A stretch of DNA of 64,000 nucleotides from a virus (IMGVR_UViG_3300013005_003552:64001-128000); one strand, 5' to 3'. Shown: positions 31,726-62,471, counted from the stretch's first letter. Translations and numbers: made by a program. The notes: generated from the sequence alone by a model not told the origin.

Positions 31726-32274
31726 ATGCCAGCTTCACTCAAGGACATCATTGAAAATACCAAGGACATCTATATGACAGATAGTGCCCTTAATATCTTG
31801 CTGGACTTTGAGCGTGTGCTTGATGAATTAGATTTATATGCATTCCGCAACTGGAAAAAAGGCGAGTTGGTAGAAGGTCCCACTATTGAAAAATATTTTG
31901 TAACTTGCATTTTTATGTGGCCTTACAAACTCATGCCAGATCCTCGCGGTGCAGAGCGATTGACAGAATATGATATTGAAATCCGTTACAAGCGTGAGAG
32001 ATTAGAATCTCCTCGCCGAGTAAAAAGCCCAGACGACTACGAACCAGGGACCAAATATCCACGCATGGATAGCAAACCAATTTGGTTAGTTGAAATGGTC
32101 ATGCCCAAGAGCCTGATTACAGAAATAAATCAAGGCAGTTTAGAACTAGAAGATGATGTGATTGACATGCAGGACGTTGATCAGGCCTACGAAGCAGGTA
32201 CCGACGATGATGTAAATCGTACAGAAGAAAATCAGAGCAGTGCAGAACAACCTGCCACTGGAGGACAAGTATGA
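31726..32274 (+). CDS. Hypothetical late protein
   Basis: ATAAATA 31703-09 and GGAG RBS. LLDFERVLDELDLYAFRNW...MPDPRG. Confidence 0.7.
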   Translation: MPASLKDIIENTKDIYMTDSALNILLDFERVLDELDLYAFRNWKKGELVEGPTIEKYFVTCIFMWPYKLMPDPRGAERLTEYDIEIRYKRERLESPRRVKSPDDYEPGTKYPRMDSKPIWLVEMVMPKSLITEINQGSLELEDDVIDMQDVDQAYEAGTDDDVNRTEENQSSAEQPATGGQV

Positions 32275-32801
32275 GTCTTGAATACGGCGATCTAAAACGA
32301 CTGGTACACGACGAGCTACACATTGACGAGTTTTCAAGCAAACTAGGCGACAACAAAGATGTGGTAGTAGTGAGCCTTAAGGTAGCAGGTAAAGAACCAT
32401 GTCAAGATATCTGTGCGTTTGTAGAAAAAGGTTATGACTGGGTGCTTGACGCAGATGTAAGTCCAGGCGAGTTGGAAGACGGCGCCCATGTAGTGTTTAT
32501 AGAATTGCCCAGAGACAACAACTGCGTGAAGCATATCTTAGAATTCATGACCGATCTTATGAATCTCACTGAACAAAAGTTAGAGGACTATAGAGTGAAA
32601 TACCGTCATCAATCAATAGAGTATCCTCTAGAATTAGAAACACTTGAAAGAGTTATTCCATGCAGTGCTAAAGAATACAAACGCATGTATAGCAAGCAAG
32701 AAATTGACCAATTAAAAACTGCCGCTGGTATCGATGTCGACACCAAGGCACCTAAGAACGATTTTACCGAAAGCCTGCGAGTAGCAGCAGGCATACTTTA
32801 A
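32271..32801 (+). CDS. Hypothetical protein
   Basis: GGAGG RBS and ATGA overlap. Confidence 0.7.
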   Translation: MSLEYGDLKRLVHDELHIDEFSSKLGDNKDVVVVSLKVAGKEPCQDICAFVEKGYDWVLDADVSPGELEDGAHVVFIELPRDNNCVKHILEFMTDLMNLTEQKLEDYRVKYRHQSIEYPLELETLERVIPCSAKEYKRMYSKQEIDQLKTAAGIDVDTKAPKNDFTESLRVAAGIL

Positions 32802-32810
32802 GGAGCAATT

Positions 32811-33440
32811 ATGAGTTTCAAATTTGAATTCACTGAAGCAAAACTTAGACAGATACTGGTTGGAGCCCCACATGTGGATCAATGGTTCTTGGCCATTCAG
32901 GCCATTCTACCTGACTATGAAATTGACACGCCCGAGCGTGTGGCATGCTGGATAGGGCAGACTGCCCACGAAAGCGGCAACTATAGATTCCTGAGAGAAA
33001 ATCTAAACTATTCAGCAGAAGGCTTGAACAAAATATTTAAGAAGTATTTCCCCACAGTAGAAAGTGCCAAGCCTTATGCTCGCAATCCAGAAAAGATTGC
33101 CAATAGAGTTTATGCTAGCCGCATGGGCAACGGTGATGAGCGATCAGGCGACGGGTGGAAATACCGTGGCCGTGGATTGATTCAACTCACTGGCAAAGAC
33201 AACTACGAAAACTTTGCAATGAGTATTGAAGAAACAGTTGAAGAAACTGTCAAGTTCCTGGAAACATATGAAGGCTCTGTGCAAAGCGCCTGCTGGTTCT
33301 GGGAAGCAAACAACCTCAACAACCAAGCTGACAAGATGGATGTGAAACTGTTGACTAGAAAAATCAACGGCGGTTTCATTGGACTTGAAGATCGTATCAA
33401 ACACATCACCCATGCCATGCATGTGCTGAAAGGGCACTAA
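32811..33440 (+). CDS. Glycoside hydrolase family 19 endolysin
   Basis: QTAHESG, ENLNYS, IANRVYASRMGNG, YRGRGLIQLTGKDNY, SACWFW, KINGG. Confidence 0.92.
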   Translation: MSFKFEFTEAKLRQILVGAPHVDQWFLAIQAILPDYEIDTPERVACWIGQTAHESGNYRFLRENLNYSAEGLNKIFKKYFPTVESAKPYARNPEKIANRVYASRMGNGDERSGDGWKYRGRGLIQLTGKDNYENFAMSIEETVEETVKFLETYEGSVQSACWFWEANNLNNQADKMDVKLLTRKINGGFIGLEDRIKHITHAMHVLKGH

Positions 33441-37325: not shown

Positions 37326-39626
37326 ATGATACAGGCTAATCCTGAAATTGAACTCATTATTTCTGCTGCTGGCGATAATGCTAAAAGGCACAAACACGAA
37401 TATGTAACCTTGGAGCATCTATTGTATGCCATACTTAATTACCGTCCATTTGGTGATCTTCTCAAGAACTTTGGCACAGATGTTGACGCGATATTAAACG
37501 ATATTGACAGTTACAACAATAGATTTGACAATGGCAATCAAGCCAACGACGAAGATCTGCAACCAAAAAAAACTCATGCGTTAGAGCGTGTGTTTAATCG
37601 TAGTCTAACACAAGTTCTGTTCAGTGGTCGCAATCACATGCAGGTCATGGATTTATTTTTGAGCATCACCGGCGAACAAAACAGTCATGCTGCTTATTTT
37701 ATTATTAAACACGGCATTGACAGAGCCAAGATAATTGAATTCTACAATGAAAACTACAAAGAAGGCAACAGTAGGAAAAATGCCTCTAAGCAACGAGCAA
37801 TCGAAGTACTAAAAGAATACTGCGATGATCTTAACGAATTAGCCACTGAAGGCAAAATTGATCCTGTAATTGGTCGCGAGCACGAGCTCGACGAAATAGC
37901 GCATGTGCTTGCCAAACGAAACAAAAGCAACATTCTCATGGTAGGCGACGCAGGGGTTGGTAAAACAGCTATTGCCGAAGGACTGGCTCGACGCATTGTT
38001 GAAGGAGATGTTCCTGACTATTTGAGAGACTATACTGTTTACAATCTTGACATTGGCAGTTTGCTAGCAGGTAGTAAGTACCGCGGAGAGTTTGAAGAAA
38101 AACTCAAAGATGTAATCAAGGCGCTGAACATTCGTGGCAAAACAATTTTGTTCATTGACGAAGCACATCAAATGCGTGGTGCAGGCTCAGGGTCGGGTAG
38201 CAATGTTGACTTTGCAAACATGATCAAACCTGCATTGACCAAGGGTCGTATCAAAGTGATTGCGTCTACTACTTGGGAAGAATACACTCAAACTTTTGAA
38301 AAAGATCGTGCGCTCATGCGCAGGTTCTATAGACTCACAGTAGACGAACCCACACCGGCTGTGGCCAAAGATATTCTATTTGGCCTCCGTGTTCACTTTG
38401 AAGAATTTCATGGCGGTAATATTTCAGACGATGCAATTGAAAGCGCCGTGGACCTCAGTGTGCGCTATCAAAGTGACAAAAAATTGCCAGACAAAGCAAT
38501 TGATTTGATTGATACTGCTTGTGCCAAAGCCAAGATCTATCAAACAAATTGGACAGTAAATCGTAAAAACATCATTGAATGTTTGAGTAAGTTTACAAAA
38601 ATTCCAGTTGAGCAACTCACCGGCGATGTTGAAGGCGATGGCAGCAACATTCAGAATCTTGAACCAAAAGTAAAGAGCAGACTTTACGGACAAGACAGTG
38701 CAGTTGAAATGGTGCTTGAAAAGATTTATGTAAGTCGTGCAGGACTAAAACCATTGAACAAACCAGTTGGCACATTTTTGTTTACTGGTCCCACAGGCAC
38801 TGGTAAAACTGAGCTTGCCAAGTTGTTGGCTGAGTTTTTAGGCATGAAATTGTTACGCTACGACATGAGCGAGTATCAGGAAAAACACAGTGTGGCCAAA
38901 CTAATTGGCGCACCACCTGGCTATGTTGGATATGATGACAGTAATCTAGGCGGGGGCTTGTTGATCAGTGACATTGAAAAGAATCCCAATGCTATTATTC
39001 TTTTTGACGAAATTGAAAAAGCTCACCCTGATGTCAGCAACATCATGCTCACTGTTATGGATGAAGGCACTGTTACCAGCAGCAATGGCAAAAAAGCAGA
39101 TTGCCGTAATTGCATTGTGATAATGACCAGTAACCTAGGTGCAGCAGACAACGAAAGAAACAATATTGGCTTTGGACGCGACTTGCAAAAGTCAGGTGAA
39201 GACGATAAAGCAGTGAAAAATTACTTTAGGCCAGAGTTTAGAAATAGACTAGATGCAATATGCAAGTTTAACAAGCTAGAAAAGAACAGCATGCGCCTTA
39301 TTGTGAACAAGTTCATCAATGAAATGAATGACTTGTTGATTGACAAAGGCATCAAGGTAAAATTATCTGACTCAGCGATTGAACACATTATTGACCAAGG
39401 CTTTGATCCCAAGATGGGTGCCCGCCCGTTGGGTCGTAAGATTAATGATCTGATAAAGGTTCCGTTAAGTCGTAAAATTCTTTTTGATCGCCTAGGGGCA
39501 AATAACACGGTGTCAGTAGACTATCGTAACGACAAGCTAGAATTTGATATCACCACAACCAATTTGGCAGTAATTCCTTCTATAGACAGCAATGGATACA
39601 TCGTTCTGGACGGCATTAAATCCTAA
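37326..39626 (+). CDS. clpA: ClpA-type AAA+ unfoldase
   Basis: Clp-[11 protein letters not shown], two Walker A motifs ([16 protein letters not shown]), ClpP-docking IGF loop, no ClpB middle domain. TATAAATA at 37298-305. Confidence 0.9.
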
Positions 39627-53220: not shown

Positions 53221-53249
53221 TTGACGATCTAAATAGATCATGTTACAAT
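53221..53249 (+). promoter_or_regulatory. sigma70 promoter with nested TAAATA late motif
   Basis: TTGACG, 17 nt spacer region containing GATCTAAATAGATC, then TACAAT. Confidence 0.7.
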
Positions 53250-53271: not shown

Positions 53272-54000
53272 ATGAAAGACTACTTACACGACATCGTGCA
53301 ACACACGCACAGCCTTGGTATTATTGACCTAGTGAAGATTACTGGCAATGACCAAGAAACCTGTATTGACAGTATCGCCGAAGATCGCAGTGTGATCGTA
53401 CAAGCCAAATTCAAGAACCCAGTTCCTGAATTTGTTGGAGTATTTGGCATGCCCAATCTTGGCAAACTAAACACTATCCTTAACATTCCTGAATACAAAG
53501 AAGATGCAAAACTGACCATACTAAGCCAAGATCGTAACGGCAATCAGGTACCAGTTGGTATCCACTTTGAAAACAAAAATGGCGACTTCAAAAACGAGTA
53601 TCGTTTTATGGCCAGCGAAATCATTAGCGACAAATTAAAAAGCGTGAAGATGAAACAGGTCAAATGGAATGTGGAATTCAATCCCACTGTGTCTAATATT
53701 CAAAGACTCAAGTTCCAGGCCAGTGCCAACAGTGAAGAGCCCACATTCATTGCTAAAACCGACAATGGAAAACTAAAGTTTTTCTTTGGGGATCACAGCA
53801 GTCATGCAGGAGATTTTGTTTTTCAAGATGGTGTAGGTACACTGAGCAAGCCTTGGAACTGGCCAGTGAATGCAGTGATTGGCATCCTGGGCTTGGCGGG
53901 TGACAAGAGTATGAAGATCAGTGATGAAGGTGTTATGCAGATCACTGTTGATTCAGGTATTGCAGAATACAACTATCTCTTACCAGCACAACAAAAATGA
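53272..54000 (+). CDS. Probable DNA sliding clamp (gp45/PCNA-like)
   Basis: 242 aa with a two-domain alpha/beta pattern. Ends in QITVDSGIAEYNYLLP. Located near polB, and a clamp loader is encoded in the window. Confidence 0.6.
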   Translation: MKDYLHDIVQHTHSLGIIDLVKITGNDQETCIDSIAEDRSVIVQAKFKNPVPEFVGVFGMPNLGKLNTILNIPEYKEDAKLTILSQDRNGNQVPVGIHFENKNGDFKNEYRFMASEIISDKLKSVKMKQVKWNVEFNPTVSNIQRLKFQASANSEEPTFIAKTDNGKLKFFFGDHSSHAGDFVFQDGVGTLSKPWNWPVNAVIGILGLAGDKSMKISDEGVMQITVDSGIAEYNYLLPAQQK

Positions 54001-54353
54001 TAACCAGTCTTACAGGCACCGCTGGAGTGACAATATACGGAGGATTAAGTCCTCCGTATATTAACATGACACAGCCCAGCGCAGGTATGGTGCGCTACAA
54101 TGGTTCCAGTCAGCTCATGGAGGTGTACGATGGTACTGTTTGGTTACAGATGGGAAGTCATCCTACCATACAACTGGATGCCCGTGTGCAAGAAATATTG
54201 TACTGGGCAGAAAAGAAAATGCGTGAGGATCAAGAACTAGAAAAGCGCATGGAGCAGCATCCGGGTCTTAGAGATGCCTATGAAAAATTCAAGGTAATGG
54301 ATGTTCTCACACAAGAGAATGATAATAAAAAAGGAATCTATACCCGTGCTTGA
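53997..54353 (+). CDS. Hypothetical protein
   Basis: GMVRYNGSSQLMEVYDG..W and HPGLRDAYEKF. ATGA overlap. Confidence 0.65.
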   Translation: MITSLTGTAGVTIYGGLSPPYINMTQPSAGMVRYNGSSQLMEVYDGTVWLQMGSHPTIQLDARVQEILYWAEKKMREDQELEKRMEQHPGLRDAYEKFKVMDVLTQENDNKKGIYTRA

Positions 54354-55938
54354 ACAAGACAATCTAACTGCCAAGCAAAGCGACTATGCTGTGTTCTTGC
54401 CGGCTATTTCAGGATTCTATGCAACCTTTATAGGAAAACAGCGTGTTAACAATGACTATGTTGATCCTGCTCGTATGCCTGCGGGCATGCAGGACATGGA
54501 ACAGATGAACTGGTTGAACAGCCAAAAAAGTTTGTTTCCTTATCGGTGGAGTCTTTATTCAGGCGGTCACGCTAATCTCAATCTTGACAAGGATGATGCC
54601 AGCGAAGACATGGTTCGCAAGCGTGAGCCAGGTACATTCATGCTTGGTGACTCTGGTGGATTCCAGATTGCCAAAGGCCTATGGGAAGGTGACTGGAAGG
54701 CCAATTCGGGTTGTGCCAAAGCACAAAAGAAGCGAGACGCAATTCTCAAATGGCTCGACGGTATCGCTGACTATGGCATGATCCTAGATATTCCAACCTG
54801 GGTCATTCACGACAAGAAGGCCAGTGCAGCCTGTCAGATTACCACGCTGGAAGAAGCAGTAGACGCTACCAAGTTCAATAATGATTATTTCATGCAGCAC
54901 AGAAAAGGCAAACGCAATGGTGGTGCCAAGTTCTTGAATGTGCTACAAGGTGACAATCATGCCAGTGCCGAAGAATGGTACCAGATCATGAAACACTACT
55001 GTGATCCTGTTCAGTATCCCGACACGCATTTTGACGGGTGGGCCATGGGCGGACAGAACATGTGTGATGTGCATCTTGTGCTCAGACGCTTGGTGGCTTT
55101 GCGACATGACAATTTACTACAAGAAGGTGTGCATGACTGGATGCATTTCTTGGGTACCAGTAAACTTGAATGGGCACTGTTACTCACTGACATACAAAGA
55201 GCAATTAGAAAATATGTTAACCCTGCTTTTACCATTAGTTTTGATTGTGCAAGCCCGTTTCTTGCCACTGCCAACGGGCAGATGTATCATCAGATAGATT
55301 TGCCGCATAATGACAAATGGTGTTATCGCATGGGGCCCAGCGCAGACGATAAAAAGTATGCTCTGGACACCAGACCGTTCAAGGATGTGGTTCTAGCAGA
55401 CAAGGTGTTCAATCACTTTGACGAAAGTCCTATCAGTCAACATCTTCAGATCAAGGATGTGTGCATATACAAACCCGGCGATTTGAACAAAATTGGCAAG
55501 GAAGGCAAGACCTCATGGGACAGTTTCAGCTATGCACTCATGATGGGTCATAATGTTTGGATGCACATTGAAGCTGTGCAGAGAGCCAATCGTGAATATG
55601 ATTCAGGCACTTGGCCCAACATGCTGTGGAATCAAGGCACCAAAGGTCGTACTGGCGATCATGCAAAATTTAGAGACATTGTTGATGCTATATTTGCTAC
55701 CAGTGACAAACAAGAAAGTTTAGACATTATCGAGCACTACAGTAGATATTGGATGGATATCATTGGCACTCGCGGTTTCAAAGGCGACAAAACCATGAAT
55801 GCTCATAGTCAATTTAATTCACTGTTTGAATTTGTAGAACCAGAGGCTGAGGAGACCGAACGCGATGAGAAAATGGCAGAAGATGCAGCAGAAGATCGAC
55901 TTGAACAACTTGCAAGAATCGAACGAGGAGGAGACTGA
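54346..55938 (+). CDS. TGT-fold guanine transglycosylase, DpdA-like (7-deazaguanine insertion); start uncertain (54301-54346)
   Basis: TGT motifs in order: LGDSGGFQ, MILDIP, NVLQG, GWAMGG, HFLG, SFDCAS. Lacks the CxCxxC zinc site of tRNA TGTs. QueD-like and FolE genes lie nearby. Confidence 0.8.
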   Translation: MLEQDNLTAKQSDYAVFLPAISGFYATFIGKQRVNNDYVDPARMPAGMQDMEQMNWLNSQKSLFPYRWSLYSGGHANLNLDKDDASEDMVRKREPGTFMLGDSGGFQIAKGLWEGDWKANSGCAKAQKKRDAILKWLDGIADYGMILDIPTWVIHDKKASAACQITTLEEAVDATKFNNDYFMQHRKGKRNGGAKFLNVLQGDNHASAEEWYQIMKHYCDPVQYPDTHFDGWAMGGQNMCDVHLVLRRLVALRHDNLLQEGVHDWMHFLGTSKLEWALLLTDIQRAIRKYVNPAFTISFDCASPFLATANGQMYHQIDLPHNDKWCYRMGPSADDKKYALDTRPFKDVVLADKVFNHFDESPISQHLQIKDVCIYKPGDLNKIGKEGKTSWDSFSYALMMGHNVWMHIEAVQRANREYDSGTWPNMLWNQGTKGRTGDHAKFRDIVDAIFATSDKQESLDIIEHYSRYWMDIIGTRGFKGDKTMNAHSQFNSLFEFVEPEAEETERDEKMAEDAAEDRLEQLARIERGGD

Positions 55939-55939
55939 T

Positions 55940-56113
55940 ATGGAAAGCACCAGCAATCGAGTCCGTCATTTGGAAGAAATGCATAGAGTTTTGGACTTAA
56001 AAATAACAGAAATGCAACAGCATCCACATGTGGACGAACAAAAGGTTGCAGAATATAAGAAACAGAAGTTACAATACAAGGACGAAATTTCTAGACTTAG
56101 GTGTCAAGAATAG
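55940..56113 (+). CDS. DUF465/YdcH-like small coiled-coil protein
   Basis: GGAGGAG RBS. HLEEMHRVLDLKI...KKQKLQYKDEI. Confidence 0.7.
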   Translation: MESTSNRVRHLEEMHRVLDLKITEMQQHPHVDEQKVAEYKKQKLQYKDEISRLRCQE

Positions 56114-56147
56114 AAACAACAACACAAACAATTGTCCGAGGACTACA

Positions 56148-56471
56148 ATGATCACTAAAGGTTTTTACAAGTGGCTGGCCCAAAAAATTTCTTCTGCACA
56201 AGAGGACAACCAAGACGAGCTGCGGCATAATCTATCAAAGTTTGGACAAGGCATTCCGGCAGGGCATACCAGAGTGTATGATGAGGTGGATGCCACTTTG
56301 GATTTGCACTTCCGCATGAGCAAAGCCGAAAACGGTTATGTAATGTCAGTTAGACACACTGATCGTAAAACTGAAAGATCAAATAATACACTGTATTTGA
56401 TAGCAGATCATGAAGATCTTGGTCAAAGTATTTCTCATATAATCACTGTTGAAAGTTTGAAAATCAAATGA
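56148..56471 (+). CDS. Hypothetical protein
   Basis: GAGGA RBS before ATG 56148. Confidence 0.6.
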   Translation: MITKGFYKWLAQKISSAQEDNQDELRHNLSKFGQGIPAGHTRVYDEVDATLDLHFRMSKAENGYVMSVRHTDRKTERSNNTLYLIADHEDLGQSISHIITVESLKIK

Positions 56472-56983
56472 ATCGTCAAGGACATGAAACTGTGAAATTC
56501 TTTGTTGGCCAAGAAGTTGAGCACTCGCCTGCTTACGGCATGCGCACACTGTTTGTGATTGGTTTGCAAAACCCAACTGATATAATTGGATGGGCTCAGC
56601 AGTGTGAATGTCAGCACATCTATTTTGGTGCCAATCAAACTTTTCCCAATCCTGGCATCAATGACAGTGACACATGGCGACCTTGGGAAAACATGATCAA
56701 GGCTGCACTGGACTCTGGTGCATGGTGTACGCTGGATCTTGATGTGAGTGCAGTCGAAGCCTTGCACGAAAGTGGCTTGTGCGAATATGCTAGATTCATT
56801 CCCATGATCAGTGTTAAACTGCCCTACATTAGTTTGCTCAATTACAATACCACAATTAAACTAGATGACCGAGACTTTGAATCAACCAACCCTGGCGTGT
56901 GGTGCCATAGTCTACATGATTTGAAAAATCGTGCAGTGTTCACTGACTGGTCTAAATATTCTCAAGATGAGGTGATAACATGA
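56468..56983 (+). CDS. Hypothetical enzyme-like protein in the deazaguanine cluster
   Basis: FFVGQEVEHSPAYG.RTLFVIG, HIYFGANQTF, KLDDRDF..TNPGVWCH, FTDW. Confidence 0.7.
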   Translation: MNRQGHETVKFFVGQEVEHSPAYGMRTLFVIGLQNPTDIIGWAQQCECQHIYFGANQTFPNPGINDSDTWRPWENMIKAALDSGAWCTLDLDVSAVEALHESGLCEYARFIPMISVKLPYISLLNYNTTIKLDDRDFESTNPGVWCHSLHDLKNRAVFTDWSKYSQDEVIT

Positions 56984-57183
56984 AAGAGTTTTTAATAAGA
57001 GACGAACCTGCATTTAGATTAAAAGGGCGAATGAGCCAGTGTCTGAGCCCAGAGAATCTTTGGTGCGTGGAATTCACTGGGCAAAGTCTAAATGACAAAG
57101 GTGAAGTGGTTAATAATAGTACCTATCAGTTTTTCCTTGAGGACGCACATATACAAAACATGGTAAAAGGATTACTGTCATGA
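56980..57183 (+). CDS. Hypothetical protein
   Basis: GAGGT RBS and ATGA overlaps. Confidence 0.6.
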   Translation: MKEFLIRDEPAFRLKGRMSQCLSPENLWCVEFTGQSLNDKGEVVNNSTYQFFLEDAHIQNMVKGLLS

Positions 57184-57332
57184 CCTGCGAAACCTGTGGC
57201 AAAGACTACTCCCCAGCCTGTGACTTTCAGCAAGGTCGCTGTCCGTTGCATCCACCCATGTGGAACTTGACACCATATCATTTTCGCTATCTCACACTTG
57301 TCAACACTATCAAAGGTTGGTTTCGCTCATGA
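57180..57332 (+). CDS. 50-aa Cys-rich (putative Zn-binding) peptide (not in ORF track)
   Basis: MTCETCGKDYSPACDFQQGRCPLHPP... with ATGA overlaps on both sides. Confidence 0.6.
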   Translation: MTCETCGKDYSPACDFQQGRCPLHPPMWNLTPYHFRYLTLVNTIKGWFRS

Positions 57333-57769
57333 ATACACAAATGGACAGATCACAAACAGACATAAACAGTGAAGTTGCAGATCGCATGATATGGGTGCGT
57401 TTTGAAAAAGAGGGTATTCATAAATATCCAGCAGCACTGGAGGATCCTAAACTTGCGGATGTATCTTTTCTTGGCTTTCCTCATCGCCATATTTTTCACT
57501 TCCGGGTGTCAATCAGTGTGTTCCATAATGACAGGGACATCGAATTCATCCAGTTCAAACGATGGCTGGAGAGTCTGTATAGCGATTCCACTCTAGAACT
57601 CAATTATAAATCCTGCGAGATGATTGCAGACGACTTATATATCCAAATTAACTTGCGTTACCCCGGCAGGCATGTTATTATCTCAGTTAGCGAAGACGAC
57701 GAAAACGGTTGCGAAATTGTTTATCGAGATCCCCGCACCCCAGAAAAAACTTTTTACCATCCAGTATAA
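57329..57769 (+). CDS. QueD/PTPS-like T-fold protein
   Basis: GIHKYP...HRHIFHFRVSI...IEFIQFKR...SCEMIA...VSEDDENG parallels QueD H..., HGHxY, xDFxxLK, TxExxA, VxET. Confidence 0.7.
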   Translation: MNTQMDRSQTDINSEVADRMIWVRFEKEGIHKYPAALEDPKLADVSFLGFPHRHIFHFRVSISVFHNDRDIEFIQFKRWLESLYSDSTLELNYKSCEMIADDLYIQINLRYPGRHVIISVSEDDENGCEIVYRDPRTPEKTFYHPV

Positions 57770-57783
57770 TAGGAGAAATCAAG

Positions 57784-58092
57784 ATGGCGCACCCAAAGTG
57801 GCTTACCAAATACTTTGTTATGAAGTCCGAAGTTAATCAAATCTATGATGACTTAGAAAAATATCGTGAGTTCTGTGTTTCACACGGTCGTGTGTTCAAT
57901 GAAGCGGCACTGTACAATGAACGCGACAGAGATTTTTCTGATTTCATGCGTTTCAAAGAACGAGGATATAGCAAGAATCATTGGAACTGGGCCAACAAAG
58001 ATCCTAACGAACAGCGTAAACCCTTCAACAAAGACAACCGAGGCCCTCGTGGTTTTAACAACTATCGCTCAGGATACAATCGCAATGCGTAA
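57784..58092 (+). CDS. Hypothetical protein with N/R-rich tail
   Basis: AGGAGA RBS before ATG 57784. Confidence 0.65.
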   Translation: MAHPKWLTKYFVMKSEVNQIYDDLEKYREFCVSHGRVFNEAALYNERDRDFSDFMRFKERGYSKNHWNWANKDPNEQRKPFNKDNRGPRGFNNYRSGYNRNA

Positions 58093-59275
58093 GTTATACT
58101 ACATGGGTCTTGAAAGTTACAAAGCTCGGTACACACTACAGCTAACAGAATGGAATCGTCGTGTGTTCGAACGACGCGGACTTGATGTTAGTTATGTACC
58201 AGGACTTACTCTGGACAATGGAGAAAAGATTGTGGTTGGTCAGGTGCTGGATGCACATGGTCGCACATACTTTGGCATGAGCCAGCTGATGAATCTAGTT
58301 AGACTAATGCAGCAAGGAGAAGTAACCAGTGAAGATGTTATCTACTTTGAAGACATGTTTCAGCCCGGTATTGAGAGCTTACCTTATATTCTCAATCAAG
58401 TGCCTGCTAATCTGCGTCCTCGCATTTTTGTCCGTTGTCTTGCTCAAGCCATTGATCCTGATGACTTCGTACATGTATGGGGCATGTCTAAGTGGATGGG
58501 CTTGTATGAAAAAATGGTATGCGAACTTGTCCGGGACTCAGGAGGCGCAGTACTAGCCACCAATGAAGAAATGGTCATGCACATGAAGATTGCAGGATGG
58601 GATTGTCCTATCTACAACATTTCAGGCCTGGCCTTTGGCAAGGATGAAGTGCGTGAGCGTGTACCTGGCGAACTCAAACCATTCCTTGAACGCAGTATGC
58701 GTGTGGGCTTTGCAGCTCGCTGGGATCAAGAGAAACAGCCCAACTTTTACATGGACTTGATTGAACTCTACCATGAGCGCAATCCCGGCAACACAGTAGA
58801 GTTTGCTGTGTTCTCTGGTGCGCCATTGCGTACCAACAATGACAGCTACATGGCTCGTACACGACAAATGCAAGCCGAAGGCAAACTGACAATCTATGAA
58901 GATCTAGAAAAGAACGACTACTATGCTCTTCTTGCTGACACTCGGGTGTTGTTCAATTGTGCTTTACAAGACTGGGTTTCTAACACAGTGAGCGAAGCAG
59001 ATACTCTTGGTTGCAATGTACTTTATCCTGCTTACCGTAGTTTCCCCGAGTCCTTTGGCAATGATCACACTAGATTGTATGTGCCTTGGTCATTGAAAGA
59101 CGCTTGTAAGAAACTGGAGAAACTTTTGTACCTGGAAAGTTCTCGTATGGGCAAGATCAGTGACTGGACCAATGGCACTGTAGATCGTATTGTCGACATC
59201 ATCGAAGGCCAAGGCGAGCAATGGTTGCGCATGAGTACAGACTATCGTAAACACACTCACGAAAGTAAATTCTAA
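58085..59275 (+). CDS. GT-B fold (GT4-like) glycosyltransferase
   Basis: VGFAARWDQEKQP...LEKNDYYALLADTRVLFNCALQDWVSNTVSEADTLGCNVLYPAYRSFPE. Confidence 0.8.
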   Translation: MRKLYYMGLESYKARYTLQLTEWNRRVFERRGLDVSYVPGLTLDNGEKIVVGQVLDAHGRTYFGMSQLMNLVRLMQQGEVTSEDVIYFEDMFQPGIESLPYILNQVPANLRPRIFVRCLAQAIDPDDFVHVWGMSKWMGLYEKMVCELVRDSGGAVLATNEEMVMHMKIAGWDCPIYNISGLAFGKDEVRERVPGELKPFLERSMRVGFAARWDQEKQPNFYMDLIELYHERNPGNTVEFAVFSGAPLRTNNDSYMARTRQMQAEGKLTIYEDLEKNDYYALLADTRVLFNCALQDWVSNTVSEADTLGCNVLYPAYRSFPESFGNDHTRLYVPWSLKDACKKLEKLLYLESSRMGKISDWTNGTVDRIVDIIEGQGEQWLRMSTDYRKHTHESKF

Positions 59276-59277
59276 TT

Positions 59278-59382
59278 ATGATTTATGTCATTGGAATCCT
59301 TTTGGTGGTCGCCATGTACTTTTTCATCTGCATGGTAGACAGCGAAACCAAACATCACGACCAGGATTCCAATGGACTTTGA
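59278..59382 (+). CDS. 34-aa membrane peptide (not in ORF track)
   Basis: MIYVIGILLVVAMYFFICMVDSETKHHDQDSNGL fills the gap. Weak RBS. Confidence 0.4.
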   Translation: MIYVIGILLVVAMYFFICMVDSETKHHDQDSNGL

Positions 59383-59611
59383 GCTGTGGCATCAATTGTT
59401 AACTGAAACTGTGTATTGGCAAGACATCAACCCTCACAGGTCTCTTGATATTTTGCAACGCACTGCTGTGGCCTGGGCACATGATCAGAAGTATTTTATG
59501 CAATCTGGTCCTGACCGGGTGGATTTGACAAAACTCTACGAACAATATAAACTACTAGAAACTCTCAAAGGAACTTATCATGGCGAAGAAATCGGATCAG
59601 AACACTGCTGA
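59372..59611 (+). CDS. Hypothetical protein
   Basis: AGGA RBS. Ends LYEQYKLLETL. Confidence 0.55.
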   Translation: MDFELWHQLLTETVYWQDINPHRSLDILQRTAVAWAHDQKYFMQSGPDRVDLTKLYEQYKLLETLKGTYHGEEIGSEHC

Positions 59612-60656
59612 ACCAGTGAACCCAGAACATGAACATCTAATCGAGGTACTAAAGTTCACTCCGCGTACTTACAAAATCCAGCTATGGGGTTACGGCGGTG
59701 AGTACGCCATGGGCACTGTGGACCGAAACATATATGATTACTTTCGTAGGCGTAGATTGAGCGTGGCTGATTTTGCCTGGGACAGTGACTATGCTGAAAC
59801 TCATAACATACCAGAATCCATGTGGCCATTTGTTCCAGGATCTTGGTATGAATGCGAAAACATGGGACATGTGTACGGAGTAGACCGAGCATCTGGCACC
59901 ATGCAGATTTTGGATGAAAATGGCGAAGTGGTGTATGAACGCAGCTTGGAAGAACTTGATGGTTGTGATGTAGAGCTTAACACTCGCGACGAAATTTGGA
60001 TTGATAGTCAACCCAAAGATACTGTTGTATTTTTTGGTTACACCGCTGACAAAGGAACCTTCTTTGAAGCTGACATAGAGCTTGGTGCTCCTTTTGATCC
60101 AGAAAAACTATGCTTGGTTATTGATGATTTTGATTCAAATGAGATCATCACAGGTGCAGAGTACGATGGCGAAGAACTGTGCAACGACGGCGGAGATACC
60201 AATGGCAAAGGATCTGATTTTGCATTCTACATTGCAGGCAGTAACAAAGGCCAGGGCTATGAGAGATATCGCGACATGGACGATATCAAATACAATCTTA
60301 CCAATTGGTTTCCTAGCAAAATCAAGCCTGTAGTTGCAGGTATATATGAAGTGGAAGCCAAACAAGGACATATCTATCATGCTGTGTGGTCTGGCGAGTT
60401 CTGGCACAATGAATGGAGTGATACAAAAGAACCATTGAAAATCAAGCAATGGCGAGGCATCGCCTATGATCCAGACGAGCAATTTCTTCGTGATGAGTTA
60501 GATCAAATATACTTGTCGCTTGTTGTTGAAGACCAAGATGCTGAAGTACTAAATTGCGAACATTGCGGCTGGAGCGGCAGTGCCAACAACACCAATGACT
60601 GGGATGGCCAAATGTGTTGCCCTGACTGTGGCGAACCTGTACAATCTATCAATTGA
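59580..60656 (+). CDS. Acidic hypothetical protein with C-terminal zinc ribbon
   Basis: AAGGA RBS. GYGGE motif, WFP...P...G.YEV module and CEHCGW...CCPDCG. Confidence 0.7.
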   Translation: MAKKSDQNTAEPVNPEHEHLIEVLKFTPRTYKIQLWGYGGEYAMGTVDRNIYDYFRRRRLSVADFAWDSDYAETHNIPESMWPFVPGSWYECENMGHVYGVDRASGTMQILDENGEVVYERSLEELDGCDVELNTRDEIWIDSQPKDTVVFFGYTADKGTFFEADIELGAPFDPEKLCLVIDDFDSNEIITGAEYDGEELCNDGGDTNGKGSDFAFYIAGSNKGQGYERYRDMDDIKYNLTNWFPSKIKPVVAGIYEVEAKQGHIYHAVWSGEFWHNEWSDTKEPLKIKQWRGIAYDPDEQFLRDELDQIYLSLVVEDQDAEVLNCEHCGWSGSANNTNDWDGQMCCPDCGEPVQSIN

Positions 60657-60666
60657 GAAAAATAAA

Positions 60667-61647
60667 ATGATCAAAGTATTTGTTACAGGAGCAACTGGCT
60701 ATATTGGTAGCCATGTATGCAAGAAATTAAAAGAAGATGGCTATGAAGTAATTGGTCTTGACCGTGTGCGCAGAGAACACACCCTGCAATACATGGATCA
60801 ATTTATAGAAGCAGACTATCATAGTCAAACCTGCATTGATGCACTGGTGCAGCATGCACCCCAAGCAGTTATTCATCTAGCAGGTACTAGTCTAGTAGGA
60901 CCCAGTGTGAGTGATCCTGGCGAATACTATACAAACAATGTGGCCAAGACTGCTGCATTGCTAAATGCCATACGGTTTCTAGAACACATGCCAGTGGTAG
61001 TTTTTTCTAGCAGTGCCGCGGTGTATGGTGCACCAGAAAAAGACCTGATACACGAAAACGATCCTTATAGCCCACTGAGTCCATATGGACAAAGCAAGGC
61101 CATGATTGAAATCATGCTAACGGATTTTTTCAAGGCCTACGGCATGTGCAGTGCCAGTCTGCGTTACTTCAATGCCTGTGGTGCTGACGAGTCTGGAACT
61201 CTTGGTCAAGCACCTGGTGCAACACACATTGTGGCTAGATTATTAGAAAGTGCTAGAGATAAAACAAAATTTACTCTTTACGGTAATGATTATAATACCG
61301 CAGATGGTACTTGTGTGAGAGATTATGTGCATGTGAGTGATCTAGCCTCGGCTCATAGCCTAGCAGTGTCGTACCTAATGAGCGATATGGATCCTTGCTT
61401 TGCTCTAAATCTTGGCACAGGCCAAGGATACAGCAATCAAGAAGTCATTGACACAGTTATCCAAACTGTTGGGTCTGTTGACATTTCTGTTGGCCCACGA
61501 CGAGCCGGAGATCCTGATCAACTGGTAGCAGGAAATGTGTTAGCCAAAGCAAAACTAGGTTGGCATCCAGAAAACTCTAATTTGTCCAATATTGTAACTT
61601 CTGCATGGAAGTGGTATAATAACCCATCAAATCAAGTTGACAACTGA
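60667..61647 (+). CDS. galE: UDP-glucose 4-epimerase
   Basis: VTGATGYIGSH, FSSSAAVYG, YGQSK (YxxxK), LRYFNACG, DGTCVRDYVHV. Confidence 0.92.
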   Translation: MIKVFVTGATGYIGSHVCKKLKEDGYEVIGLDRVRREHTLQYMDQFIEADYHSQTCIDALVQHAPQAVIHLAGTSLVGPSVSDPGEYYTNNVAKTAALLNAIRFLEHMPVVVFSSSAAVYGAPEKDLIHENDPYSPLSPYGQSKAMIEIMLTDFFKAYGMCSASLRYFNACGADESGTLGQAPGATHIVARLLESARDKTKFTLYGNDYNTADGTCVRDYVHVSDLASAHSLAVSYLMSDMDPCFALNLGTGQGYSNQEVIDTVIQTVGSVDISVGPRRAGDPDQLVAGNVLAKAKLGWHPENSNLSNIVTSAWKWYNNPSNQVDN

Positions 61648-61665
61648 TCTAAATAAGTTTACAAT
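61637..61665 (+). promoter_or_regulatory. sigma70 promoter with nested TAAATA, upstream of folE
   Basis: TTGACA (61637-42), 17 nt spacer containing GATCTAAATA, TACAAT (61660-65). Confidence 0.75.
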
Positions 61666-61703
61666 ACACAACTAGCCATCCTCGGCTATAACTCGGAGAG
61701 CAA

Positions 61704-62471
61704 ATGGTTTACAACAAAGCATACATTAGCAATGACGAAGAAACCGCACTAGACGCCATGGCAGGCGATGGCGGTTATGCCCTGGGGCAAGCACACAAAC
61801 AGATTGCAGCAAAAATGCGCCGTGAAGGCAAGCGATTCTGGGCAGGCGATAACATCAGCGACTATGTTGACGATAAGGCCAAAGAACAACTGATTGACGA
61901 AGCGCGAGCTGCATTTGAACTTGTGCTAGACACACTGCTAATTGATCGACACAATGATCCTAACAGCCACGGCACAGCACAACGCTTGGCCAAGATGTAT
62001 TACAACGAAATAATGGCAGGACGATATGAATCAGCACCAGACGCAACAGCATTCCCAAACAACACCACAGACCGATACGAAGGTATGCTGGTTGTGCGTT
62101 CTGAGTTACGCAGTATGTGTAGTCATCACCATCAGCCTGTCAGTGGCGTTGCTTATATTGGAATTATCGCTGCCGAAAAACTAATTGGTCTGTCTAAGTA
62201 TACTCGTATTGCTCAGTGGTGTGCTCGTCGTGGCACTCTCCAGGAGGAACTGGCCAATGACATTGCTAGGGAGATCAGCCGAGCCACCGGAAGCAAAAAT
62301 GTAGGTGTTTACATACAGGCCACGCATGATTGCTGTGAGAATCGCGGCATCATGGCACACAGTTCATTGACCCAGACCACTGTGCTGACAGGTGCATTCA
62401 AAGACGATCACAGTGTGAAGAAAGAGTTCATGGACAATATTAAACTACAGCAAGAATTTGCTCCGAGGTAA
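61704..62471 (+). CDS. folE: GTP cyclohydrolase I
   Basis: TAQRLAKMY, SMCSHH, IGLSKYTRI, ARRGTLQEEL, ATHDCCENRG. Confidence 0.93.
   Translation: MVYNKAYISNDEETALDAMAGDGGYALGQAHKQIAAKMRREGKRFWAGDNISDYVDDKAKEQLIDEARAAFELVLDTLLIDRHNDPNSHGTAQRLAKMYYNEIMAGRYESAPDATAFPNNTTDRYEGMLVVRSELRSMCSHHHQPVSGVAYIGIIAAEKLIGLSKYTRIAQWCARRGTLQEELANDIAREISRATGSKNVGVYIQATHDCCENRGIMAHSSLTQTTVLTGAFKDDHSVKKEFMDNIKLQQEFAPR

Follow-up and report, generated by a model that had tools for sequence, protein, structure and literature searches.

In the viral contig IMGVR_UViG_3300013005_003552, the window analysed here (the whole stretch of 64,000 nucleotides, positions 64001-128000 of the contig) carries at 54346-62471, on the plus strand, genes for a TGT-fold enzyme, DpdL, a GT4-type glycosyltransferase with a GT-B fold (GT), a true GalE, and FolE, together with several accessory genes (Table 1). 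In the ORF list, all five named genes are encoded on the same strand and the spacing consists of overlaps of 4-8 nt or gaps of at most 96 nt, which bears out the description of this region in an earlier note as a co-oriented, tightly packed run. Directly upstream of FolE, at 61637-61665, is the region's best sigma-70-like match.

Table 1. Features of the gene run, with window coordinates.
Feature	Position	Strand	Basis
Divergent TGT-fold DNA transglycosylase candidate (DpdA-like, PA5oct type)	54346..55938 (start possibly 54319)	+	AF2, Foldseek, invariant motifs
147-aa ORF, no family match, poorly conserved	56028..56471	+	
g171, 171-aa conserved protein, recurrent GT companion	56468..56983	+	
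Pair of short, overlapping ORFs (67 and 50 aa) with translational coupling to adjacent genes	56980..57332	+	ORF list
DpdL, T-fold QueD paralogue, proposed 7-carboxy-7-deazaguanine decarboxylase	57329..57769	+	LxxxHRHxF, phrog_17812, tblastn
102-aa protein with basic Gly/Asn/Arg-rich tail; 8-nt overlap with GT start	57784..58092	+	Translation
GT4-family GT-B glycosyltransferase	58085..59275	+	AF2, Foldseek, family PF00534
Two accessory ORFs (79 and 358 aa)	59372..60656	+	Translations
UDP-glucose 4-epimerase GalE	60667..61647	+	TIGR01179, Pfam Epimerase
GTP cyclohydrolase I FolE, first deazaguanine-pathway step	61704..62471	+	PF01227, phrog_2197

No Pfam, NCBIfam, or PDB sequence match was obtained for the TGT-fold protein; PF01702 was absent even at an E-value of 10, and a PDB profile search was also empty. 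When its AF2 model (pLDDT 86) was compared with the PDB by Foldseek, the top 50 matches were all tRNA-guanine transglycosylases (E-value approximately 2e-7, TM-score on the target approximately 0.5), and the Atlas feature lead (score 0.93) pointed to a cluster with PF01702 on 17% of its members. The motifs DSGGFQ, LDIP, and SFDC are invariant across 33 homologues, as are D102, D148, and D300 (numbering of the 530-aa protein), which we take to be the two catalytic aspartates and the substrate-binding aspartate (LDxP) of Z. mobilis TGT. The zinc motif CxCxxC..H is absent from the sequence, no Cys cluster could be detected among the invariant columns of the 33 homologues, and the earlier view of a TGT-fold protein devoid of a zinc site is consistent with both fold and motifs. 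The protein also possesses an acidic, disordered C-terminal tail. It shares 34.5% identity with PA5oct EST35_0316 and aligned with ACP17 DpdA at a probability of 58% in hhalign. Membership in the DpdA3 subfamily was rejected, since no homology to phiST CGPG_00065 could be detected (hhalign probability 0.5%) and the protein is closer to the PA5oct/Phosso type and remotely related to the ACP17/X1 type. With both catalytic aspartates retained, this enzyme is a candidate for swapping a modified base into DNA.

The gene previously described as QueD-like does encode a T-fold protein, but its identity is DpdL and not QueD: it carries LGFPHRHIF, which matches the signature LxxxHRHxF that defines DpdL in place of the CxxxHGH of QueD (PMC10516641). 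L48, H52, R53, H54, and F56 are invariant among 21 sequences, the protein matches phrog_17812 (E-value 1e-35), and tblastn detected it in 28 phage records, including those of phiST (CGPG_00067, 4e-9) and ACP17 (6e-37). DpdL has been proposed to decarboxylate 7-carboxy-7-deazaguanine (CDG) to 7-deazaguanine. FolE was recognized, as the earlier note had it, by PF01227 (E-value 1.3e-39) and also by phrog_2197, whereas the true QueD and QueE are located outside the run, 1.7-4.4 kb past the window end, in the neighbourhood of genes for a purine phosphoribosyltransferase (PRTase), a sugar-phosphate nucleotidyltransferase, a second epimerase, and a HIT protein. QueC was not found in the 144-kb record (approximately 39% of the genome), and none was above cut-off in four related records. 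DpdL together with FolE, QueD, and QueE, and with no QueC found, indicates a QueC-less DpdL-type system, the type that yields plain 2'-deoxy-7-deazaguanosine (dDG) in phiST, and it follows that the expected base is 7-deazaguanine, a base without a side chain on which a sugar could be placed. The contig is best read as a fragment of an uncultured, very large T4-like environmental phage that carries a QueC-less DpdL-type 7-deazaguanine DNA-modification module.

The glycosyltransferase was modelled by AF2 with a pLDDT of 94.6 as a GT-B fold of two Rossmann domains, and its best Foldseek matches in the PDB were the GT4 enzymes MshA and BshA (E-value 5e-12), with PimA also matched; its earlier assignment as a GT-B enzyme therefore stands. 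Although the query itself has no match to PF00534 (Glycos_transf_1), 40 of 60 aligned family members do (best E-value 4.5e-10). In the family alignment, conservation is complete at R210, E214, and K215 and at least 90% at D294 and E302; R210/K215 and D294..E302 presumably represent the NDP-sugar-binding R/K and D/E-x7-E positions of GT4 enzymes. Among viral models, the closest folds are ACP17-type proteins, and DNA alpha-glucosyltransferase ranks 14th. Thousands of homologues are present in metagenomes.

GalE is the true UDP-glucose 4-epimerase that had been named from the outset (TIGR01179 at 326.4 bits versus a cut-off of 262.3; Pfam Epimerase 2e-53), and four sampled relatives from subclade 1, in which a true GalE directly follows the GT, also exceed the cut-off (289-302 bits). 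In subclade 2, the cluster retains a GalE-like gene of shorter length, along with a conserved sugar-phosphate nucleotidyltransferase. The suggested co-occurrence of GalE with the module holds within the source phage's clade, to which GalE after the GT is restricted, and fails outside it: no GalE was found in the clusters of PA5oct, ACP17, X1, and Phosso, nor in those of the other cultured GT-bearing phages compared, which leaves the sugar donor uncertain. Elsewhere in the source phage, a second, classical GT4 gene lies beside OMP-like genes, and its product could use GalE instead.

The remaining genes of the run differ in how widely they are kept. The best conserved are the 102-aa protein, found in 46/80 relatives with DpdL on one side and the GT on the other, and g171 (39/80). 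Neither a Pfam nor a PDB identity could be found for g171; its profile matches ACP17 ASD50402 (E-value 2e-20) as well as ORFs directly upstream of the GT in six distant contigs (L103-L106, L109, and L110), and a weak Atlas lead (score 0.83) pointed to glycoside-hydrolase-like clusters. A homologue of the 147-aa ORF was seen in only 2/80 related loci, while the 67-aa and 50-aa ORFs are kept in 3-5/80. The 79-aa and 358-aa ORFs, the latter with a C-terminal Cys4 zinc-ribbon-like motif, have only a weak match to phrog_26541 and are present in 4-6/80 relatives.

Evidence on the role of the GT comes from its distribution. In 76 of the 80 close viral contigs, a member of the GT family has DpdL only a few genes away, and close relatives with full flanks show the order DpdA-(g171)-DpdL-(g103)-GT. 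In two distant GT branches (approximately 33% identity), DpdL adjoins the GT in all 19 loci (17 distinct contigs), in either order and with FolE alongside. Among cultured phages, the GT is 0-4 genes from DpdL in six lineages (PA5oct, ACP17, X1, BCSR5, Phosso, and BUCT-ZZ01), whose hosts belong to Pseudomonas, Acidovorax, Xanthomonas, Burkholderia, Sinorhizobium, and Synechococcus. Every GT-bearing locus that retains the DpdL-side flank has the GT beside DpdL, and in no such locus was the GT found apart from it. The co-occurrence that the earlier note had wished to see checked is thus upheld for this pair of genes. The GT is absent from six other DpdL phages, including phiST, and in the DpdL tree GT-less lineages are nested among GT-bearing ones with at least three changes, so that the GT behaves like an optional addition to the module, downstream of DpdL. 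The TGT-fold gene is less tightly linked, being far from the GT and DpdL in Phosso, and in the distant GT branches no copy was detected up to 8 kb away. These data strongly support the notion that the GT4 enzyme is part of the deazaguanine module and not of a surface-sugar pathway.

FolE, QueD, and QueE make up the route from GTP to CDG, and on this basis a pathway may be proposed in which DpdL would decarboxylate CDG to 7-deazaguanine. After this step, the GT would add a sugar from a UDP-hexose interconverted by GalE, its acceptor being either the free base, later inserted by the enlarged transglycosylase, or the base already in DNA, and the product in virion DNA would be hexosyl-7-deazaguanine rather than plain dDG. 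The simplest role for the XPRT-like PRTase would be to recycle released guanine into GTP. We give an even chance to the reading that this is a QueC-less DpdL-type module with a dedicated, built-in GT and with hexosyl-7-deazaguanine as the predicted constituent of virion DNA; a sugar-bearing deazaguanine in DNA is in itself plausible, at even or slightly lower probability. A more specific version, in which the DNA of the source clade and of PA5oct, ACP17, X1, BCSR5, Phosso, and BUCT-ZZ01 contains hexosyl-7-deazaguanine because the GT glycosylates the free base and the enlarged TGT-fold enzyme inserts it, is tentative and falls somewhat short of an even chance. Two published observations are counted in favour of a GT-added sugar: PA5oct DNA resists enzymes with G-containing sites and its G is modified, with the chemistry not identified (PMC12191111), and expression of ACP17 dpdA and dpdL alone in E. 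coli gave no dDG, the authors noting that other enzymes may be needed (PMC10516641).

Several considerations weigh against glycosylation of the base. At C7, 7-deazaguanine carries neither a hydroxyl nor an amine side chain nor a carboxyl, so that an acceptor site would be without precedent, and GT4 enzymes are not known to us to form C-glycosides. In addition, phiST fully replaces G with dDG (PMC10516641), and its genome has no GT. These points would suit an arrangement, which we consider unlikely, in which the DNA contains plain dDG as in phiST, a base offering no obvious acceptor, while the targets of the GT and GalE lie elsewhere, for example in a virion or replication protein or a component of the host envelope, and the module is just a convenient early or middle operon for them. 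Phages often carry a GT4 enzyme and GalE for surface glycans (PMC7824862), and the source phage has a second GT4 beside OMP-like genes. However, adjacency of the GT and DpdL persists among GT members only approximately 20-33% identical, across changes in gene order and in six host genera, which is hard to explain without a shared function, and no locus with its flank retained was found to have the GT away from DpdL; moreover, the diversity of hosts among the cultured phages with the GT speaks against a role at the host surface.

It is also conceivable, if quite unlikely, that the GT has a small-molecule target whose glycoside never becomes part of DNA; examples would be a transient CDG glycosyl ester processed by DpdL or the transglycosylase, or a pterin derived from the FolE product. 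The closest link of the GT is with DpdL, a T-fold enzyme for small molecules, and not with the TGT-fold gene; pteridine glycosyltransferases of cyanobacteria provide a precedent for the pterin option, and BUCT-ZZ01, one of the GT-bearing phages, infects the cyanobacterium Synechococcus. UDP-glucose:tetrahydrobiopterin glucosyltransferase appears at rank 15 among the structural matches of the GT, but it is no closer than many other GT4 folds. Furthermore, GT clusters always include QueE-route genes, whose only viral use known to us is DNA modification, and GT-less phages demonstrate that DpdL does not require the GT. An improbable scheme would have the base enter DNA before replication, the XPRT-like PRTase making a nucleotide that is reduced, phosphorylated, and polymerised, and the TGT-fold enzyme having a secondary or different role. 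The PRTase is conserved in the clusters of the source phage, BUCT-ZZ01, and PA5oct, the pathways of the deazapurine antibiotics toyocamycin and tubercidin attach a base to PRPP, and a G replaced throughout, as in phiST, would be in keeping with incorporation by a polymerase. Yet the TGT-fold enzyme keeps both catalytic aspartates under strong conservation, in the published view DpdA acts after replication in all phages of this kind, salvage of released guanine explains the PRTase equally well, and this gene was seen in only 19/80 related loci, a set in which many are truncated.

To our knowledge, no deazaguanine base so far described from DNA bears a sugar, and those DNA bases with sugar decoration that we know of or met in the searched literature are pyrimidines. 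No paper linking a glycosyltransferase to deazaguanine DNA, and none describing a sugar-bearing purine in DNA, was found in that literature. The dDG-type module itself is already known from phiST; what is new is a glycosyltransferase that accompanies DpdL, and its presence in abundant environmental phages and in six or more cultured ones predicts a DNA base of a new class. If the prediction is true, DNA would for the first time be seen to contain a purine with a sugar, attached to the deazapurine by a new kind of glycosidic linkage. The role proposed for the GT could also explain the missing product of ACP17 dpdA and dpdL in E. coli and the modified G of PA5oct, a therapy-relevant jumbo phage, and would be relevant to evasion of restriction and CRISPR, to defence systems that sense modified G, and to bias in virome sequencing.

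Among known systems, the closest is the DpdL/DpdA3 dDG system of phiST (PMC10516641), which shares FolE, QueD, QueE, a DpdL with LxxxHRHxF, a TGT-like transglycosylase, the lack of QueC, and a location beside replication genes. It has neither a GT, GalE, PRTase, nor g171, and contains a MazG-like gene instead; its DpdA3 is 259 aa long and has no detectable profile similarity to the 530-aa enzyme of the source phage. In phiST, plain dDG was measured as the product. The clusters of PA5oct, ACP17, X1, BCSR5, Phosso, and BUCT-ZZ01 have the same GT family beside DpdL, along with FolE, QueE, and a long TGT-like gene, and differ from the source phage in having no GalE. PA5oct has the same TGT subtype as the source phage, the PRTase, g149, and the pol...RNaseH frame, while four of the six cultured phages carry a second TGT-like subtype. 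Beyond the modified G of PA5oct, the searched literature gave no DNA chemistry for these six phages. In five of their records the GT gene is annotated as hypothetical; the Phosso record calls it 'glycosyltransferase', and UniProt lists the ACP17 protein as a glycosyl transferase family 1 protein.

The alpha- and beta-glucosyltransferases of phage T4 are likewise GT-B enzymes that transfer a UDP-hexose onto an already modified base as a second anti-restriction layer, although they belong to other GT families and their acceptor is the hydroxymethyl group of a pyrimidine (5-hydroxymethylcytosine). Hydroxymethylpyrimidine glucosylation of the T4 type is not supported for the source phage, as the thymidylate synthase family (PF00303; hydroxymethylase) was not found in its record, a genome fragment; two relatives have a high-scoring ThyA-like gene. 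In mannosyl- and galactosyl-queuosine of animal tRNA, the acceptor is a cyclopentenediol hydroxyl, whereas here the target would be DNA and the expected base lacks that side chain. The synthases of these nucleosides, including the GT4-type enzyme QTMAN/GTDC1, nevertheless resemble the system proposed here in that a GT-B-type enzyme places a hexose on a 7-deazaguanine derivative in nucleic acid.

The glycosyltransferase (GT) of the module adjoins DpdL, a proposed decarboxylase of 7-carboxy-7-deazaguanine (CDG), in close, distant and cultured viral lineages, and the co-occurrence and synteny of GT with deazaguanine genes anticipated in the earlier note are thereby borne out. The structural model of GT has the GT-B fold previously read from its sequence (pLDDT 94.6), with the GT4 enzymes MshA and BshA as nearest relatives, and among viral structure models it comes closest to an unnamed 370-aa protein and one from ACP17 (TM 0.71-0.86). 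Pfam Glycos_transf_1 is matched by 40 of 60 members of the GT family but not by the GT of the window. Because the residues that GT4 enzymes use for holding the NDP-sugar are retained, GT is expected to be catalytically active.

Among GenBank phages, tblastn detected GT in a single record, that of Synechococcus phage BUCT-ZZ01, directly behind its DpdL. Using a more sensitive profile of the GT family, which comprises 754 clusters at 50% identity, we located GT 0-4 genes from DpdL in half of the 12 DpdL-bearing cultured lineages, namely BUCT-ZZ01, PA5oct, ACP17, Xanthomonas X1, Burkholderia BCSR5 and Phosso, whose record already annotates it as a glycosyltransferase. The family is absent genome-wide from the other six (phiST, RHph_I1_18, Ahp1, Bakedbeans, D479 and MA9V-3), according to a search that detected GT in positive-control genomes. 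DpdL was also detected in 76 of 80 close viral contigs bearing GT, and close relatives with full flanks share the order pol - clamp - TGT-fold - (g171) - DpdL - (g103) - GT - ... - FolE - ... - QueD - QueE - g149 - RNaseH, where g171 is a conserved 171-aa protein, g103 a small protein of the DpdL/GT interval and g149 a conserved cluster gene. Two distant GT branches, approximately 33% identical to the GT of the window, were sampled at 19 loci (17 distinct contigs), in all of which DpdL adjoins GT, on either side, with FolE alongside. That the adjacency has outlasted such divergence, rearrangement of the genes and a spread over six host genera speaks strongly for a function shared by GT and DpdL, and it argues against a role of GT in host-surface glycans.

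The distant loci (L095-L106 and L109-L115, several of about 80 kb) have the arrangement QueD-QueE-FolE-DpdL-(g171)-GT, with ORFs of 346-638 aa downstream of GT. With the profiles used, neither a TGT-like gene within 8 kb nor a phiST DpdA3 homologue was detected at these loci, and no further loci came from scans that took P0374 and P0361 as seeds.

Features of the module and of related loci (window coordinates unless prefixed; L001, the 16 kb that follow the window end; L107, same record, upstream of the window; L004, PA5oct)
Feature	Coordinates	Genome coordinates	Remarks
Sigma-70-like match	53221-53249		10/12; directly before clamp-like gene
TGT-fold protein	54346-55938
g171	56468-56983
DpdL	57329-57769
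GT	58085-59275
Accessory protein	59580-60656		358 aa; between GT and GalE; C-terminal CxxC...CxxC zinc-ribbon-like motif
GalE	60667-61647		NCBIfam equivalog, 326 vs 262 bits (cut-off)
Sigma-70-like match	61637-61665		11/12; directly before folE
FolE	61704-62471		clear Pfam match
Sugar-nucleotide genes interleaved with queD, queE	L001:356-4438 and L001:4872-6041	128356-134041
QueD	L001:1679-2224		just past window end
QueE	L001:3545-4438		just past window end
XPRT-like phosphoribosyltransferase (PRTase)			beyond window end, interleaved with queD/queE
HldE-domain-II-like nucleotidyltransferase			beyond window end; resembles heptose-1-phosphate adenylyltransferase; 72 bits, below cut-off
HIT protein			beyond window end, among queD/queE
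HldD-like epimerase			beyond window end, among queD/queE; 178 bits, below cut-off
NanM-type sugar O-methyltransferase candidate			beyond window end; 43.5 vs cut-off 44 bits
Methylase-like protein	L107:5982-7283	31982-33283	433 aa
Second GT4	L107:12619-13623	38619-39623	Glyco_transf_4 + Glycos_transf_1, E 2e-24
PA5oct EST35_0320	L004:13416-13934		172 aa

The gene described earlier as QueD-like is real, but its identity has been corrected to DpdL, a T-fold paralogue of QueD: it carries LGFPHRHIF, in agreement with the LxxxHRHxF signature that defines the proposed CDG decarboxylase (Cui, Hutinet et al., PMC10516641), and is homologous to the DpdL proteins of phiST and ACP17. The predicted FolE was confirmed, and true QueD and QueE genes are present outside the window. 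This QueD has CSLMHGY in place of the usual CxxxHGH, the second zinc-binding His being replaced by Tyr; its Pfam PTPS match is nonetheless clear (E 6e-15). Since a search for QueC found none in the record and nothing that exceeded the cut-off in four related ones, the pathway would end at CDG or 7-deazaguanine (DG), as in Cellulophaga phage phiST.

The TGT-fold protein proposed in the earlier note is also real. By sequence it has zero matches in Pfam, PHROGs, NCBIfam and PDB (sequence and profile), and a genome-wide search with PF01702 did not recover it; its identification came only from a fold search, in which the top 50 PDB matches of the AF2 model (33 homologues, pLDDT 86) were exclusively tRNA-guanine transglycosylases (E ~2e-7). 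The motifs DSGGFQ, LDIP and SFDC are invariant among its homologues, and, as had been claimed, it lacks the zinc motif known from tRNA TGTs. The TGT-like enzymes linked to GT form two long subtypes that are only remotely related to each other, one in this phage, PA5oct and Phosso and the other in ACP17, X1, BCSR5 and BUCT-ZZ01; the 259-aa DpdA3 of phiST is similar to neither.

The record is a 144,265-bp IMG/VR viral sequence with an estimated completeness of ~39% (CheckV), and is therefore a fragment of a larger phage genome, perhaps 350 kb in size. For the family-B DNA polymerase the nearest matches are jumbo-phage enzymes, from Phosso, Atu_ph07 and Vibrio 2.275.O, at 45-50% identity, and a near-identity DNA search with the record gave zero matches in GenBank phages. 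All credible genes of 53272-62471 lie on the + strand, with overlaps of 4-8 nt or gaps of at most 96 nt. The number of sites in a promoter and terminator scan of this region was not above chance; between its best two sigma-70-like matches there is no noteworthy + strand terminator-like site, which fits a single transcript that starts with the clamp gene, takes in dpdA, dpdL and GT and extends to galE. No RNA family was found in the window and the 16 kb beyond it at Rfam gathering thresholds. The accessory protein behind GT occurs in only six of 80 relatives. Upstream of the window, the C-terminal part of a 433-aa protein weakly matches N6/N4 DNA methylases (E 9e-5, below the cut-off) and could represent a second DNA-modification activity.

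GalE is genuine and a cluster member in this clade, but it does not hold as the general partner of GT. True GalE lies behind GT in one subclade (289-302 bits in the four sampled), and the other has a shorter GalE-like gene behind QueE and retains the nucleotidyltransferase of the cluster at 67-76% identity. No GalE was found inside the clusters of cultured GT-bearing phages, and the BUCT-ZZ01 epimerase is encoded elsewhere in the genome; GalE is therefore a clade-specific supplier rather than a core part. PA5oct EST35_0320, two genes behind DpdL within the deazaguanine cluster, aligns with no more of the NAD-dependent epimerase family than its N-terminal Rossmann part. Together, the products of the sugar-nucleotide genes located among queD and queE could synthesise an NDP-sugar donor different from UDP-Gal and modify it further. 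The g171 gene is also found beside GT in ACP17 and several distant contigs; its Pfam search was empty, PDB profile matches to designed 'Cake' repeat proteins were judged spurious, and the one lead from Atlas, to glycoside-hydrolase-like clusters, stayed below threshold.

FolE, QueD and QueE are established as the enzyme families leading to CDG. In the mechanism proposed here, they would produce CDG, DpdL would strip off its carboxyl group, and GT would serve as a second-tier decoration downstream of DpdL. In the DpdL tree, which is only indicative given a short protein and some long branches, GT-less RHph_I1_18 and Ahp1 nest within a GT-bearing clade of good support, and GT must have been gained or lost no fewer than three times; this nesting suggests that DpdL works without GT, which fits such a downstream role. 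We lean slightly towards GT acting on the free base, with the bulky glycosylated base then being inserted, as GT is tied more tightly to DpdL than to the transglycosylase and the TGT-fold enzymes of GT-bearing cultured phages are enlarged. Equally open is a T4-like order of events, in which GT would glycosylate 2'-deoxy-7-deazaguanosine (dDG) once it is part of the DNA. For the PRTase, also present in the BUCT-ZZ01 and PA5oct clusters, the simplest role would be to salvage the guanine that base exchange sets free; its use in a pre-replicative nucleotide route is a minority alternative.

In the earlier note, GalE was thought to supply a sugar that GT places on the deazaguanine in DNA, of which the membership of GT in the cluster has stood. 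Judged from gene content, a glycosylated deazaguanine base in the DNA of GT-bearing phages is quite possible, if somewhat short of probable. It is doubted because 7-deazaguanine is without a conventional acceptor group and because phiST, in which all dG is replaced by dDG (PMC10516641), achieves this without GT. Moreover, a second, classical GT4, flanked by two OMP-beta-barrel-/porin-like proteins and a metallophosphoesterase, is an alternative user that could consume the GalE product instead of the GT of the module. A hydroxymethylpyrimidine acceptor was dropped, as no synthase gene was found in the record.

When the literature was searched for sugar-bearing deazaguanine in the DNA of phages, only studies of glycosylated pyrimidines came up, and within the literature searched DpdL is named only in a 2023 NAR paper, the main text of which is without a glycosyltransferase (PMC10516641). 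PA5oct DNA is resistant to restriction at G-containing sites (PMC12191111), one of two published observations that fit a missing component. The other is that ACP17 dpdA and dpdL, expressed in E. coli without further genes, yielded no dDG, for which the authors proposed that additional enzymes may be required. The glycosylated-base reading is directly testable in cultured phages.
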